From NCBI RefSeq assembly GCF_000027125.1, contig NC_017626.1: a stretch of DNA of 64,000 nucleotides. One strand, given 5' to 3'. The stretch is from Escherichia coli 042 (GTDB taxonomy: Bacteria > Pseudomonadota > Gammaproteobacteria > Enterobacterales > Enterobacteriaceae). Positions 12,398-16,743 of the stretch are shown piece after piece; positions within the stretch are counted from its first letter, which is position 1; every line of letters begins with the position of its first letter. Below the pieces are notes generated by a model, which saw nothing but the letters and a program-made list of their open reading frames with translations, did not search any database and had not been told where the DNA came from. Both the position numbers and the translations under genes were made by a program.

Positions 12398-12420
12398 TAG
12401 CGAAAATTGATTGTGCCATC

Positions 12421-12445
12421 CAATGATTATCTATGGCAATGATTT
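12421..12445. promoter_or_regulatory. Candidate Fur box in the yddA-yddB-pqqL promoter
   Basis: caATGATtATCtatggcAATGATtt, 24 to 48 bp upstream of the yddA start, resembles the Fur consensus GATAATGATAATCATTATC; the operon encodes a TonB-dependent receptor. Confidence 0.35.
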
Positions 12446-12687
12446 ACTGATGAAATTTATTTAAGTGTCATTTAACATTTTGAAATATAAAGAAATTTTT
12501 TATTTTCAATGGTTACGATTATGCTATTGATAATCAAGGGTATTGCTAATGCCCTGACGCATGCCACGTAAGCCAGAATTTTCGCAAGGGAAGATGATGA
12601 TGACGAAACACCCAACAGGAATTTATGTCGGGTGCTTTGTTAAGGTCATAAGACGGAGGCTAAGACTGGAGCAAAGAAGGAGCGTTA

Positions 12688-13845
12688 TTAATTATTCTCC
12701 ATTTGTTTTGCAACATCCATAATGTGGTAAAGCGGTACTCTGTTCTTGGCTAACTCCACCATGGCGTTCATATAAGGTACCATGGTTGAAAAAAGGATTT
12801 TATAACCTTCGCAAAAATAGGAAACAGTCTCATTGTTTACTTTAGTAATACGATGCTTAGGGCAACCGCCATTGCAGATAGGTTTATATGCACATTGCTG
12901 ACATTTCGCTGAAATCCGTTTTTTTTGCGCTGTCAGTTGTACACTGTTCATCGTTTTAAGTTCAGATTTATTAATGTTTCCAATTTTGTACTGTGGATAG
13001 ACAAAATGGTCGCATTCGTAAATGTCTCCATTACTTTCAACAACCAGATTATCCTTGCAGGACTCCTGGAAAATACAACTGGTATGCCCATTCCCCAAAA
13101 AACGGCTGACAAAACTTTCAAACTGACGGATGAAAATTTCACCCACATCGTTTTTAACCCATTGCATAAAAATGGTCGACATAAACTTGCCATAAGCCGT
13201 AGGAGGCACAGAAAAATCAATGATACGGAATGTGTTCTCACTATGACCACTGAAATCAATATTCGGCGTCCCGGTTTCGAGCAATTCGATAAATTGCATA
13301 TGTTTACTGCCGATAGATTTTAAAAAATGATAAACCTCAAGAGGGTAATGGACATTAACGTTATTAATGACGGTTAACGTATTAAACTCTACTTGATATG
13401 ATTTCAGACGCTCGATGGCTGCTATCACTTTTGCAAAAGTACCGTTACCAGAATTACTGCGTCTGTAACGGTCATGTAGCTCCTGGGGTCCATCGATCGA
13501 GATACCAACCAGAAACTCATGTTCTTTGAGAAAGGCACACCATTCATTATTCAATAAAATGCCATTCGTTTGTAATGCATTAAAAATACGTTTTTGGCCT
13601 GCATAGCGTTGTTGATAGTGAATAACTTTACGGAAAAAATCCAGACCAGCCAGAGTGGGTTCACCGCCTTGCCACGTAAAATAGACCTGATTGCCAGACG
13701 CTGCGATATATTGTTTGATGAACTCTTTCAGAGTGCTGTCATCCATCCATTTTTCATGAGTAAACTGCGACTCTTTTTCAAGGTAAAAACAGTAATCACA
13801 TTTGAGATTACATTGAAAACTGGAGGGCTTGGCTGTAACGTGCAT
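12688..13845 (-). CDS. ydeM: Radical-SAM anaerobic sulfatase-maturating enzyme homolog
   Basis: CNLKCDYC (CX3CX2C) radical-SAM motif at the N-terminus and a C-terminal Cys-rich SPASM-like region ([18 protein letters not shown]); start taken at MHVTAKP. Confidence 0.85.
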
Positions 13846-13896
13846 CGCTATCTCGCTCAATAAGGCGGCGGAAAAATCCGCCGCATGAAGGTTTAG

Positions 13897-15579
13897 TTAT
13901 TTCGCTTCGCTTAGTGCTTTCTTGATATTGTTAAACTTCTCCTGATTTACCTCGCTAAGCGGTGGCTGGCTGCTGTCGATAAACTCTCTTACCACGCCTT
14001 GCATCTCTTTAACGACCTGTGGATTGGCGGCGGCAAGGTTATCTTTTTGCTGTAGATCCGTCAGTTTGTATAGACCTAACTGATTGTTTTCTACTGTATA
14101 GACAAGCGAATAATCGTTATTTCTCACCGTATAAGAGAATTGGCTTAAGTCCTCGGTATTGGGGTTATGCGGGTAATCGTCTGACTGATGGCGGACAAAT
14201 TTGTGGTAATTATCCCAGAATGGAATATTTTCCTCGTCAAACCAGTGAGAATAAGAGGTTATCCAGGTCAGATTTTTATGTGGCTCGCCTTGTTTCTTAT
14301 CTTGCAACCACGGCAGCAAGGAAACGCCATCCAGCTTAAGGTCTTTTGGAATGCTGATATCGGCTGCATCAAGAGCTGTCGGGTAGAAATCCATTGCGGA
14401 AATCAGCTTGTCATAATTACCTGGTTGAAGTTTTCCTTTCCACCACATAAACATTGGGGTGTGAGTACCGCCAGGATAAGTCTGACTCTTATAGCCTTTT
14501 TGCGCCCCGTTCAGCGGCAGAGGACCATCGATAACCGCACCATTATCGGAGGTAAAGAGAATAATAGTATTGTCATACTGTCCGTTTTTCTTCAGTTGTT
14601 CGAGAATGCGTTTTACACCCTGATCAACAGAATAAACGGAAGCGTAGTAGTTATCTGCTGTTTGACTACCGGTATTAAATTGCTTCTGATATTGCTCCGG
14701 TGCAGGATTATCATTTGGCAGGTGCGGAGCATTATAAGCCAGGTAAAGCATAAAAGGCTGGTCAAGTGTTTTGGCACGATCAACAACGCCAATTGCCTCA
14801 TCGGTTAACTGATCGCTGATATAACCTTTTGCGGGGACGCGTTCACGATTTTTGAACAGTGAAGGGGAGTTGTAATATGCCGTTCCTGCAGCGTGGAATC
14901 CCATAAAGTAATCAAAGCCACGGTTTTGAGGTTGCCATTCTTCCGCAGAAAATGTGGTGAAGTTGTCATGATAGTCACGCGTTTGTTTATCTTCCGGTAC
15001 TGGCACATTACTGATTTTTGACAAGTGCCATTTACCTACTGCTGCAGTGTAATAACCATGATTCTGGAATAATTCAGGCAAGAAAGTTTCTGTTAGCGGA
15101 ATACCATCCTGAGCATCGGTATTGGAATAGACACCAAAGCGGGCGGGCGCTCGACCGGTCATTATTGCGGCGCGGGAGGGGCCGGAAACACCGTGCGCCA
15201 CATAGCCGTTAGTAAAACGTACGCCTTCATCCATTAATGAAAGGAGCGTCGGCGTTGATTTTTGCGCAGCTTCAATGGCTTTATCTATCCCTATTTTGTA
15301 GGTATCGACAACTTCACGATTTTCCATTGTTTTTGGGTCAAAAGATTCCTTATCAAAAGGAAGTTGTCCATAACCAAGATCATCCATGGTCAGTACGATA
15401 ATATTTGGCTTTCCTTTGGTACTGTATTCAGTCGGCGTAAAGTCTGAGAAAGCAACGTTTGTTTTGGTTGCTTTCAGCTTTACATCATCTGCCGCATGAG
15501 CAGCAAATGCAGCCATACCAGATGCCAGTATCAAAGATATCGAGGTACTTACGACACTTTTCTTTAATGCAGACTTCAT
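13897..15579 (-). CDS. ydeN: Ser-type sulfatase YdeN (secreted)
   Basis: Signal peptide then sulfatase signature S-G-P-S-R-AAIM-TG (Ser type, needs a maturase); start taken at MKSALKK. Confidence 0.85.
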   Translation of the reverse strand: MKSALKKSVVSTSISLILASGMAAFAAHAADDVKLKATKTNVAFSDFTPTEYSTKGKPNIIVLTMDDLGYGQLPFDKESFDPKTMENREVVDTYKIGIDKAIEAAQKSTPTLLSLMDEGVRFTNGYVAHGVSGPSRAAIMTGRAPARFGVYSNTDAQDGIPLTETFLPELFQNHGYYTAAVGKWHLSKISNVPVPEDKQTRDYHDNFTTFSAEEWQPQNRGFDYFMGFHAAGTAYYNSPSLFKNRERVPAKGYISDQLTDEAIGVVDRAKTLDQPFMLYLAYNAPHLPNDNPAPEQYQKQFNTGSQTADNYYASVYSVDQGVKRILEQLKKNGQYDNTIILFTSDNGAVIDGPLPLNGAQKGYKSQTYPGGTHTPMFMWWKGKLQPGNYDKLISAMDFYPTALDAADISIPKDLKLDGVSLLPWLQDKKQGEPHKNLTWITSYSHWFDEENIPFWDNYHKFVRHQSDDYPHNPNTEDLSQFSYTVRNNDYSLVYTVENNQLGLYKLTDLQQKDNLAAANPQVVKEMQGVVREFIDSSQPPLSEVNQEKFNNIKKALSEAK

Positions 15580-15981
15580 AAATGTTCCTCTTCTTATTGT
15601 ACTTAATTCCAAAGTAATTTTACGAAGAGAAATAAGTGAATGTAAGTGAAGTTAGTCACATAAAGAGATAGCAGATTTAGCTAAAAAAAGGGAAATAACA
15701 GTCCATGAAGCGTTGACATTACTTTCTATTCTACTAAGTAATTTCTCGACGATAAACAACTAATCTATTGATATTTAATAAATTATTGTATTTTACTGAC
15801 AAAATGCCGAATTGAGATCATAAATAATCATGCAACAGGTTATGCAAATGCATAAATATGTGATGAATGTCACTTATTTATTTCAATAAATATATCGCCT
15901 AAAAACAACGCGGGGCAGGGAATGGCTGCCCCATTTTAATTTTTACGTAGGGTGCGTGGTTGACTACTCGTTAGCAAATAA

Positions 15982-16743
15982 TCAAATAGCTAAAGCATTC
16001 ATCGTGTTGCCCTTATTCATACCCGTGTGCCTTTGACAACGGTACTCCTTAGAAACTCTCTTTGGACTGTTGCCAAAATGTTTGCGGAACGCATAAATAA
16101 AATAAGATGTACTCGCATAACCACATTGTTCGGCAATTTTATTGACTGAACCTTCTACGCGTATCAAATTTTTTGCGTGCTGCATTCTGGCATCTAAAAG
16201 AATCTGTGAGAATGTCGTTTGCTCTTGCTTTAGTTTTTTCTTCAACAGGCTTTCACTAATGTACAGGCAGTCACAAATATCTTTCAGCTTCCATGGGTGC
16301 GCCAGCTTCATGTTGACAATATTTCTAACTTTCCCAGAAACGGATAGCACACCGTTAGTTAATAGTGTAATGAAACCTTTGCATGCGGCAAAAATAGACA
16401 GGCAAGAAAAAAGCAAAAGTTCTGAAAAATTATGATGATTGCGTTCTTCCGAGTTGAGATAAGCAATCATTTCATTAAGCAATCCAGTCGGTACATTTGA
16501 AGCACGTAAAAACTTCGCAGGAACAGGCACCGTCACTGTCTGGATGTTAGTGCATTGTAGATATTTTTTAATGGTATTTTCATTAAATCCGATTTCTTTG
16601 AAATGCCGCTCATAAGGTTCAAAATGCGTACGAACAGCGTTATCTACCATCAGGATCTCGCCGTCAGAGAAGGCGTAATCTTTATCTAAAATGTTAGCGT
16701 TGAAGGCATGATGAATAAATATAACAGAACAAACGAGCGACAT
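15982..16743 (-). CDS. ydeO: AraC-family acid-resistance regulator YdeO
   Basis: 253-aa ORF with C-terminal AraC-type HTH; immediately downstream of safA. Confidence 0.88.
   Translation of the reverse strand: MSLVCSVIFIHHAFNANILDKDYAFSDGEILMVDNAVRTHFEPYERHFKEIGFNENTIKKYLQCTNIQTVTVPVPAKFLRASNVPTGLLNEMIAYLNSEERNHHNFSELLLFSCLSIFAACKGFITLLTNGVLSVSGKVRNIVNMKLAHPWKLKDICDCLYISESLLKKKLKQEQTTFSQILLDARMQHAKNLIRVEGSVNKIAEQCGYASTSYFIYAFRKHFGNSPKRVSKEYRCQRHTGMNKGNTMNALAI

Follow-up and report, generated by a model that had tools for sequence, protein, structure and literature searches.

The adjacent genes ydeN and ydeM of Escherichia coli raise a two-part question: do they encode a working pair, that is, a sulfatase and the radical-SAM enzyme that activates it, and, if so, what might such a sulfatase act on? 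In the 64,000-nt stretch of E. coli 042 DNA analyzed here (contig NC_017626.1; "the window"), the pair is intact, ordinary and already annotated: RefSeq names YdeN a "sulfatase-like hydrolase/transferase" and YdeM an "anaerobic sulfatase maturase." The original prediction of a complete pair of open reading frames was exact, as both frames are found on the minus strand at the coordinates it gave (Table 1). An alternative TTG start for ydeM at 13860 (five codons upstream, giving 390 aa) was rejected in favor of the ATG; the TTG start is unsupported because every orthologue begins with MH[VIF]T.KP at the ATG. The locus is AT-rich (GC 0.39–0.45), and in the window the pair has as its neighbors yddA, yddB and pqqL as well as ydeO, safA and ydeP. 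The genes are named in E. coli genomes and have been under discussion as a putative pair of a sulfatase and an anaerobic sulfatase-maturating enzyme (anSME) since 2007; new here are the constant gene order (19/19 loci), the hairpin between the two genes (15/15 loci) and the recognition of PB_3285 as the nearest characterized relative of YdeN.

Table 1. Features of the ydeN-ydeM locus (positions are those of the window).
Feature	Position	Strand	Description	Basis
ydeN	13897-15579	minus	560 aa; Ser-type S1 (formylglycine-dependent) sulfatase precursor, putative	profile, conserved residues, model, RefSeq name
ydeM	12688-13845	minus	385 aa from ATG; putative radical-SAM/SPASM anSME, cytoplasmic	TIGR03942, 4K36 alignment, RefSeq name
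Sec-type signal peptide	15493..15579	minus	ydeN codons 1-29; MKSALKKSVVSTSISLILASGMAAFAAHA, then ADD; no twin-arginine motif	by eye
Formylglycine signature	15154..15186	minus	ydeN codons 132-142; S-G-P-S-R-A-A-I-M-T-G; Ser132 is the residue predicted to be oxidized	
YdeN-derived peptide			YVAHGVSGPSRAAIMTGR; example of a peptide for conversion to the formylglycine form	
CX3CX2C motif	13789..13812	minus	ydeM codons 12-19; radical-SAM [4Fe-4S] cluster	
SPASM region	12811..13077	minus	ydeM codons 257-345; eight Cys and D279	
Intercistronic stem-loop	13865..13884	minus	GCGGCGGA-UUUU-UCCGCCGC; between ydeN stop (13897-13899) and ydeM start (13845)	
Weak terminator candidate	12602..12634	minus	downstream of ydeM; CACCCGACA, 8-nt loop, UGUUGGGUG, then UUUCGUC; tentative	by eye
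ydeN upstream region	15580..15910	minus	AT-rich, GC 0.33; bounded by terminator-like hairpin of ydeO (15911-15933)	

Is YdeN a sulfatase? The signature S-x-P-x-R-xxxx-TG with serine at the formylglycine position, which had been claimed for it, can be read directly from residue S132 (with R136 as its arginine), and since the protein contains no cysteine at all in its 560 residues, Ser132 is the sole candidate for conversion to formylglycine. Ser132 is invariant among 15 aligned orthologues of the YdeN clade; across 70 aligned members of the wider sulfatase family the same position is cysteine in 53, while R136 is kept in 70/70 and P134 in 69/70. The rest of the catalytic set is equally constant: D66, D67, R136, K183, H185, H286, D345, N346 and K364 are, like Ser132, identical in all 15 orthologues, and, in the 70 family members, D66, D67, D345, H185 and K364 are invariant and N346, K183 and H286 are each kept in 69. 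By homology with the arylsulfatases of P. aeruginosa and human, we take these residues (the DD and DN pairs, the K/H pair, the second histidine and the last lysine) to serve as metal ligands and sulfate-binding groups.

Profile and fold agree with the signature. The sulfatase HMM that had been proposed as a check matches over its entire length (PF00884, E 2.1e-70, 238 bits, profile positions 1–301 of 301), and the structure prediction, also suggested at the outset, gives a sulfatase fold of high confidence (AlphaFold2, mean pLDDT 92.7; residues 1–43 have a low confidence of about 45), with sulfatases making up all of the top 50 PDB matches in Foldseek. The alkaline-phosphatase-like two-domain fold together with PF00884 places YdeN among the S1 sulfatases. 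At its N-terminus are a hydrophobic stretch and an A-H-A motif but no RR motif; we judged the signal peptide by eye and placed its probable cleavage site by the A-H-A motif. YdeN is thus supported, by sequence and model, as a Ser-type S1 sulfatase whose catalytic residues are all present, and its Ser132 and apparent Sec-type signal peptide are those of the periplasmic, anSME-dependent Ser-type subclass, to which it would belong.

The maturase can be placed with similar assurance. The CX3CX2C motif and C-terminal cysteine clusters of the original prediction are present as C12-N-L-K-C16-D-Y-C19 and as eight cysteines at 257, 263, 278, 315, 318, 324, 328 and 345, and all of these, along with D279, are invariant among four orthologues. 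The best solved relative of YdeM is anSMEcpe of Clostridium perfringens (4K36; E 4.9e-63 over residues 4–359): C12, C16 and C19 align with its C15, C19 and C22, as do all eight auxiliary-cluster cysteines, the SAM-binding GGE motif (which in YdeM lies within a conserved QGGEPTL) and the aspartate following the third auxiliary cysteine. On the pattern of anSMEcpe, cysteines 257, 263, 278 and 328 presumably hold the Aux I cluster and 315, 318, 324 and 345 Aux II, and D279 aligns with the proposed catalytic base of that enzyme.

In a six-frame translation of the window, CX3CX2C occurs 11 further times and a loose form of the sulfatase pattern once more; such short motifs arise by chance, and the weight of the identification therefore rests on the profile matches. 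YdeM matches both the radical SAM profile (PF04055, E 1.8e-22) and the SPASM profile (PF13186, 27.6 bits; cut-off 21.5). Placement outside the anSME family had been named as the outcome that would overturn the prediction; YdeM falls well inside it, with 505 bits against the TIGR03942 equivalog model (cut-off 349.45) in a match that spans residues 2–364 and profile positions 1–362 of 363. It scores below the cut-offs of two narrower anSME models (NF010308, 361 vs 484 bits; NF010321, 256 vs 441). By family, then, YdeM is supported as an anaerobic sulfatase-maturating enzyme, with this activity as its putative one; for neither YdeM nor YdeN did we find a published enzymatic activity in the searchable literature.

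We think it highly likely that the two genes form an intact cassette in which YdeM oxidizes Ser132 of YdeN to formylglycine and the mature YdeN acts as a periplasmic hydrolase of sulfate esters. What the data show is family membership, full sets of catalytic residues, the conserved adjacency of the genes and purifying selection; the chemistry is inferred by analogy with AtsB and anSMEcpe, and Sec-dependent export and the hairpin's role are inferred as well. The YdeN precursor would be made in the cytoplasm with its Sec signal peptide, and cytoplasmic YdeM would oxidize Ser132 of S-G-P-S-R to C-alpha-formylglycine before or during export. To do so, YdeM would cleave S-adenosylmethionine at the C12/C16/C19 cluster, a hydrogen atom would be taken from C-beta of Ser132, and the electron would leave through the two auxiliary [4Fe-4S] clusters. 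In the periplasm, mature YdeN would then hydrolyze its sulfate ester with formylglycine in its hydrated form and with a metal bound by D66, D67, D345 and N346.

The same arrangement is known elsewhere. In Klebsiella pneumoniae, AtsA is a Ser-type arylsulfatase and AtsB the radical-SAM enzyme that matures it, and E. coli itself has other pairs of a sulfatase and a maturase-like protein that follow the same logic, AslA/AslB and YidJ/YidF. As at ydeN-ydeM, in the AtsA/AtsB system and that of anSMEcpe (PDB 4K36-4K39) a sulfatase gene with the S/C-x-P-x-R motif adjoins a radical-SAM/SPASM gene. AslA and YidJ belong to sulfatase subfamilies other than that of YdeN, and YidJ-type structures reach only about 100 bits against it. 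AslB and YdeM have been put side by side in the literature as the species' two putative anSMEs (PMC8379841).

Two other assignments of function, one for each protein, deserve consideration. YdeM might be a SPASM enzyme that matures not YdeN but a peptide, along the lines of the darobactin/dynobactin or cyclophane maturases, and its scores against such families are indeed sizeable (DynA 219 bits, DarW 165, DarE 156, YhhB 154); these, however, lie far under the curated cut-offs of 445–650 (450 for DynA, 650 for DarW and for DarE), so that TIGR03942 is the only one passed, and the sole conserved neighbor in 19/19 loci is the sulfatase, with no conserved small gene for a precursor peptide beside ydeM. 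We regard a peptide maturase as exceedingly improbable. YdeN, for its part, could, instead of being a sulfatase, belong to the phosphodiesterases or phosphonate-monoester hydrolases within the alkaline-phosphatase superfamily, since it has a secondary match to PF01663 (Phosphodiest, E 1.3e-7) and phosphonate-monoesterase activity is known among S1-like enzymes. Yet that match amounts to 32 bits against the 238 of the sulfatase profile, the top-ranked solved relatives by both sequence and fold are sulfatases and so is the closest characterized one, all of which makes this assignment very hard to credit.

If the pair is a sulfatase and its maturase, how closely do the two genes belong together? 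In all 19 loci in which a YdeN-clade sulfatase (at least 54% identity) was accompanied by enough downstream sequence, from Escherichia to Fusobacterium, the sulfatase gene is directly followed by the maturase gene on the same strand. The genes around the pair are different in every genus and, where we looked at them, unrelated between loci; insertion sequences lie near it in Aeromonas and Yersinia, and among the flanks compared across genera there was no conserved transporter, regulator or catabolic neighbor. The pair behaves, in other words, as a self-contained two-gene cassette. A dedicated porin was considered as a further conserved partner and rejected: a porin gene lies upstream only in Aeromonas and at an E. 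coli paralogue of 565 aa, and no homologue was found in any other locus compared or in the window.

The cassette also has a constant internal feature. A hairpin (centroid structure, −17 kcal/mol) separates ydeN from ydeM, and one of differing sequence occupies the same place in 15/15 proteobacterial loci; of 11 short spacers, 10 have a hairpin more stable than any of 100 shuffled versions. A consensus terminator scan did not report it, the T-run in E. coli being too weak, and it may act as a leaky terminator or as a stabilizer of the mRNA. The Shine-Dalgarno sequence of ydeM, which follows this stable hairpin, is weak in E. coli, and the two elements together probably keep YdeM much rarer than YdeN. 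The terminator candidate downstream of ydeM is of low confidence, as the same scan gave no report at that position (its T-run is too short). On the other side of the pair, the upstream region of ydeN must contain both its promoter and the stretch to which AraC has been reported to bind; within 15580–15980 the AraC half-site TAGCN7TCCATA had no match at up to 2 mismatches, nor was there a tandem pair at 21-bp spacing, and half-site matches over the whole window were no more frequent than chance would give, 45 against an expected 50.

The literature portrays a pair that is under control. The genes are reported as co-transcribed, as de-repressed when araC is deleted and as reacting to diet in the gut of mice (PMC10878103), and AraC was bound upstream of ydeN only when arabinose was present (PMC3738151). 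An active Ser-type sulfatase has been obtained from E. coli cells in which no maturase was co-expressed (PMC8379841). Transcript levels vary with conditions, and YdeN peptides (a single spectral count) have been detected in anaerobic rumen-fluid culture. Deletion mutants in aslB and in ydeM were reportedly the subject of Benjdia et al. in 2007. Klebsiella AtsA is said to depend in E. coli on co-expression of AtsB, in which case the chromosomal YdeM would either be expressed poorly or act on YdeN specifically.

Such low expression is at the heart of a further explanation, namely that in E. coli we have a "cryptic" pair: intact frames that are silenced, or expressed too weakly to contribute anything, and a YdeM that matures no sulfatases in vivo. 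The weak Shine-Dalgarno sequence, the stable hairpin and the AT-richness of the region suggest that expression in the laboratory may be very low; AraC repression with arabinose, the reported need of a heterologous Ser-type sulfatase for AtsB and the lack of any reported phenotype (deletion of ydeN had no effect on azo-dye reduction) point the same way. Several observations speak against this. Between E. coli and E. albertii, dN/dS is 0.013 for ydeN and 0.036 for ydeM, with synonymous sites nearly saturated, YdeN retains 70–84% identity over distant genera, and the pair, annotated ydeN/ydeM, is kept in 99% of complete E. coli genomes (5390/5426); judged by these substitution rates, the pair is under strong purifying selection. 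Transcription is regulated and the YdeN protein has been detected, and ydeM was a fitness gene in a transposon screen of uropathogenic E. coli in cystitis, a kind of screen that is noisy. We therefore consider a cryptic pair unlikely and prefer the functional cassette.

What, then, would the sulfatase act on? The closest characterized relative that we found is PB_3285 of Photobacterium sp. QA16 (GenBank MZ358909), an exosulfatase that removes the 6-O-sulfate of reducing-end GalNAc from chondroitin sulfate oligosaccharides (PMC8819143). It is colinear with YdeN (40% identity over 504 residues with 4 gaps, E 1e-135), and the two share export, an insertion of about 26 residues after the DD motif and motifs such as RDYHDN and YNSP; the PB_3285 clade was also the top non-YdeN match in a library clustered at 50% identity, and its member in Plesiomonas likewise adjoins an anSME gene, whose product is 44% identical to YdeM. 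PB_3285 is Cys-type (C109) where YdeN is Ser-type, and the locus of its clade is one of chondroitin/GalNAc utilization (agaS, kbaZ, a 4-O-endosulfatase, a KdgM porin, DUF2264 and KdgK), neighbors that ydeN-ydeM in E. coli lacks. The PB_3285 clade has an internal identity of 63–82%, YdeN falls in a separate cluster, and the 50%-identity library held no sequences of intermediate identity between the two clusters, so that by sequence they are sister clades and not one clade. Both have members in Salmonella enterica, which suggests that the two activities are not redundant. PB_3285 is for these purposes a lead and not a result, 40% identity being too low for transfer of a substrate; the best lead that it offers is a 6-O-sulfated sugar of the GalNAc type at the reducing end of host-glycan fragments.

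The best solved relatives of YdeN lie further away. These are the carrageenan galactose-4-sulfate sulfatases of SulfAtlas family S1_19 (PDB 9HH2, 6B0J, 6PSM), which match it well (sequence E 3.7e-52; Foldseek E 3.5e-35, target-normalized TM-score 0.8), but at an identity of 26–28% only, and whose wild-type forms are Cys-type. In YdeN about 31 residues separate the matched stretches between the DD motif and P110, and in 9HH2 about 5; with this identity, and with S1_19 structures lacking the insertion, we do not assign YdeN to S1_19. Neither YdeN nor PB_3285 is named in either of the two SulfAtlas papers.

Taken together, these features allow a wider reading, possible but on balance doubtful: YdeN would be a Ser-type member of a structurally unsolved subfamily, marked by the insertion after DD, whose sole characterized member removes the 6-O-sulfate of reducing-end GalNAc, and it would desulfate small fragments of host glycans as part of a mobile, self-sufficient cassette carried by Proteobacteria of the gut or of water, E. 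coli among them. If this were true, GalNAc-6S-type sugars derived from chondroitin or mucin and freed by other microbes would be desulfated in the periplasm and could then pass into the pathways for GalNAc or for sugars in general; when the plant sugar is available, AraC with arabinose would turn the cassette off, and the hairpin, conserved in position, would keep the sulfatase in high excess over the maturase. YdeN is among the few enzymes of the E. coli core genome whose catalytic class is clear but which still lack a known substrate, and the link to PB_3285 reduces the sulfated sugars worth assaying to a few, all of them sold commercially. Should the lead hold, it would explain how a commensal that does not itself degrade glycans could profit from the sulfated host-glycan fragments released by Bacteroides, and it would fit the response of ydeM and ydeN to diet in the mouse gut (PMC10878103).

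The ydeN-ydeM pair lies on the Escherichia coli chromosome in the RefSeq gene order pqqL, yddB, yddA, ydeM, ydeN, ydeO, safA, ydeP, all encoded on the window's minus strand, and the boundaries of both genes are exactly those originally predicted. Many complete genomes match the region 12400-16000 at 100% identity, and the region was found in 5390 of 5426 complete E. coli genomes; this is a named, annotated and already known gene pair. RefSeq also lists a 40-aa "hypothetical protein" that overlaps the 3' end of ydeM and shows no sign of being real, and a GC-rich hairpin just past ydeO has T-runs on each strand and forms a bidirectional terminator-like site between ydeO and the ydeN promoter region.

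Coordinates of the gene pair, its intercistronic stem-loop and the related loci discussed in the text
Feature	Sequence	Position	Strand	Remark
ydeN	window	13897-15579	minus	560 aa
ydeM	window	12688-13845	minus	385 aa
Stem-loop	window	13865-13884	minus	perfect 8-bp GC-rich stem, inside 51-nt ydeN-ydeM spacer
40-aa "hypothetical protein"	window	12600-12722	plus
Hairpin past ydeO	window	15911-15933
Pair compared with E. albertii	window	12688-15579
Pair in E. albertii	L012	5001-7891
Cassette next to thiI, Cedecea	L016	3314-4789
Cassette next to thiI, Psychromonas	L020	8593-10047
Cassette neighborhood, Citrobacter werkmanii	L015	7968-10730
P0122 locus, Plesiomonas shigelloides	L007	1-13348		compact; also carries PTS components
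565-aa YdeN paralogue, E. coli contig	L004	3847-5544
565-aa YdeN paralogue, E. coli contig	L005	2729-4426

The original prediction was of a Ser-type sulfatase encoded beside its radical-SAM maturase; the observation holds, and profile matches support its interpretation. YdeN, which has no cysteine at all, carries S132-G-P-S-R-A-A-I-M-T-G, with Ser at the formylglycine position as claimed, and matches the whole Pfam Sulfatase profile (E 2.1e-70). Residues D66, D67, S132, R136, K183, H185, H286, D345, N346 and K364 are invariant in 15 YdeN orthologues; in a wider alignment of 70 sequences the formylglycine position is Cys in 53 and Ser in 17, and the other catalytic residues vary little or not at all. 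An AlphaFold2 model derived from the wider alignment (mean pLDDT 92.7) is disordered only in the N-terminal 43 residues; judged by eye, the N-terminus looks like a Sec signal peptide that ends in A-H-A. The closest solved folds to the model are the S1_19 carrageenan sulfatases (target-normalised TM-score ~0.8, 26-28% identity), and a sequence search against solved structures agrees with the fold search. By sequence and model, YdeN is thus a predicted Ser-type S1 sulfatase.

YdeM has the expected C12-X3-C16-X2-C19 motif and eight more cysteines (residues 257-345) forming the predicted C-terminal clusters. Short motifs of this kind are not significant alone (translated in six frames, the window has 11 further occurrences of CX3CX2C), so the family assignment rests on profiles. 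In Pfam, YdeM matches SPASM at 27.6 bits (cut-off 21.5) as well as Radical_SAM (E 1.8e-22). It exceeds the cut-off of NCBIfam TIGR03942 "anaerobic sulfatase maturase" (505 bits vs 349.45) and is far under every cut-off of the SPASM peptide maturase models (e.g., DynA, 219 vs 450; DarE, 156 vs 650). Its best solved relative is the Clostridium perfringens anaerobic sulfatase-maturating enzyme (anSME), anSMEcpe (4K36; E 4.9e-63, residues 4-359): the three radical-SAM and eight auxiliary-cluster cysteines align, as do the GGE motif and an Asp that follows auxiliary cysteine three. None of these residues varies in the Yersinia, Aeromonas and Anaerobiospirillum orthologues (53-66% identical overall). 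Taken together, these comparisons place YdeM within the anSME family, where a profile search falling outside it had been named as the way to overturn the claim, and mark YdeM as a predicted anaerobic sulfatase maturase.

Loci were gathered by looking up gene positions and by scanning species-representative genomes once; of those carrying a YdeN-clade sulfatase of at least 54% identity with enough downstream DNA, all 19 had a ydeM homologue directly downstream on the same strand. They span Escherichia, Leminorella, Citrobacter, Cedecea, Mixta, Yersinia, Grimontia, Psychromonas, Aeromonas, Iodobacter, Anaerobiospirillum and Fusobacterium. Flanking genes, where examined, are unrelated between genera and include no dedicated transporter or regulator beside the pair; the Aeromonas and Yersinia copies have IS elements close by, and in E. 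coli the pair is AT-rich (GC 0.39-0.45). Given this constant pairing in changing surroundings, ydeN-ydeM behaves as a horizontally mobile cassette, complete in itself, that lacks a transporter or regulator of its own. Neither gene is decaying: comparing E. coli with E. albertii gives a dN/dS of 0.013 in ydeN and 0.036 in ydeM, and YdeN identity across distant genera is 70-84%.

Several smaller observations concern this distribution. The E. coli and E. albertii copies encode proteins 96% and 88% identical at a dS of 1.5-1.9, which is near saturation and looks well above the usual divergence of these two species, hinting at either separate acquisition or an old allelic split. In Cedecea and Psychromonas the cassette adjoins thiI, on opposite sides, and in Citrobacter werkmanii genes for a flavin reductase and then an alkyl sulfatase come after it; such sites may be hot-spots for insertion or form a loose neighborhood of sulfur scavenging. 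A contig labelled as a Candidatus Nanosynbacter (Saccharibacteria) MAG (JARKOR010000108.1) carries a pair whose proteins are ~99.5% identical to those of E. coli; almost certainly, the contig is E. coli contamination of the metagenome bin. Many database entries (P0002, P0003, P0008, P0013 and others) fuse YdeN to bits of YdeO, YdeP or fimbrial proteins; they look like gene-calling artefacts on sequencing-run assemblies, which inflate the apparent diversity of architectures.

A small new feature is a GC-rich hairpin between the sulfatase and maturase genes that is conserved in position and divergent in sequence: stems of 8-15 bp occur at the same place in 15/15 proteobacterial loci (the window plus L002, L003, L006, L010, L012, L014-L021 and L025), and in 10 of 11 short spacers the hairpin is stabler than all 100 shuffles. 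A U-run follows it in several genera; the E. coli run is poor (CUUAUUG), and the E. coli ydeM ribosome-binding site is weak. Fusobacterium has no hairpin, the spacer there being just 25-31 nt with a Shine-Dalgarno sequence. The hairpin could act as a leaky terminator/attenuator or as a 3' mRNA stabiliser; either would keep the sulfatase much more abundant than the catalytic, iron-sulfur-rich maturase.

Published data describe regulation of the pair. Co-transcription of ydeN and ydeM has been reported, with ydeN a direct AraC target, over-expression of both genes upon araC deletion, and no YdeN substrates reported (PMC10878103); AraC bound upstream of ydeN solely with arabinose (PMC3738151). 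The sulfonated dye FD&C Red 40 induced only ydeN, which was dispensable for dye reduction. Expression of ydeN fell in the Psp and Cpx responses and strongly at pH 4.4, together with sugar-uptake genes; YdeN was weakly detected in anaerobic rumen-fluid culture, and ydeM was among the genes scored in a cystitis transposon screen. None of these data defines the YdeN substrate.

The relatives of YdeN offer a lead. Its clade is isolated: in a search of 1.84 billion representatives the next-best protein, P0122 of Plesiomonas shigelloides, was just 43% identical. YdeN and its nearest relatives, most of which outside its own clade are Cys-type, share a ~26-residue insertion after the DD motif that is lacking in S1_19 and other solved sulfatases. 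The P0122 locus contains agaS, kbaZ, a DeoR regulator, a sulfatase nearly identical to 6J66, a solved chondroitin/dermatan sulfate 4-O-endosulfatase (964 bits), a KdgM-family porin, an anSME that is 44% identical to YdeM and scores 507 bits on TIGR03942, a DUF2264 protein, a tagatose-bisphosphate aldolase, and a KdgK-like kinase under its equivalog cut-off; from this gene content it looks like a utilisation locus for chondroitin sulfate fragments and GalNAc in an enteric bacterium. In the same clade is P0392 (535 aa, 28-residue signal peptide, C109/P111/R113), which fits PB_3285 of Photobacterium sp. QA16, an enzyme that experimentally removes 6-O-sulfate from the reducing-end GalNAc of chondroitin sulfate oligosaccharides (PMC8819143). 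PB_3285 is the closest characterised relative of YdeN that we found (40% identity over 504 residues, four gaps), nearer than BT4656 (33% similarity, cited by a 2024 paper) or the S1_19 structures. Its activity is only a lead to the YdeN substrate, since YdeN and PB_3285 share modest identity and have different nucleophiles, and no glycan-utilisation genes lie beside ydeN-ydeM at the E. coli locus. Salmonella enterica has members of both clades, which argues against redundancy between them.

In some E. coli strains there is a second, Ser-type YdeN of 565 aa, 77% identical to YdeN (a cluster of 303 sequences), its gene directly after a porin gene and close to an IS110 transposase. E. coli has two putative anSMEs, ydeM and aslB (PMC8379841; likewise the title of Benjdia et al., 2007). 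As no ydeM homologue lies within 8 kb of the paralogue gene in either contig, its maturation would have to come in trans, from chromosomal YdeM or AslB.
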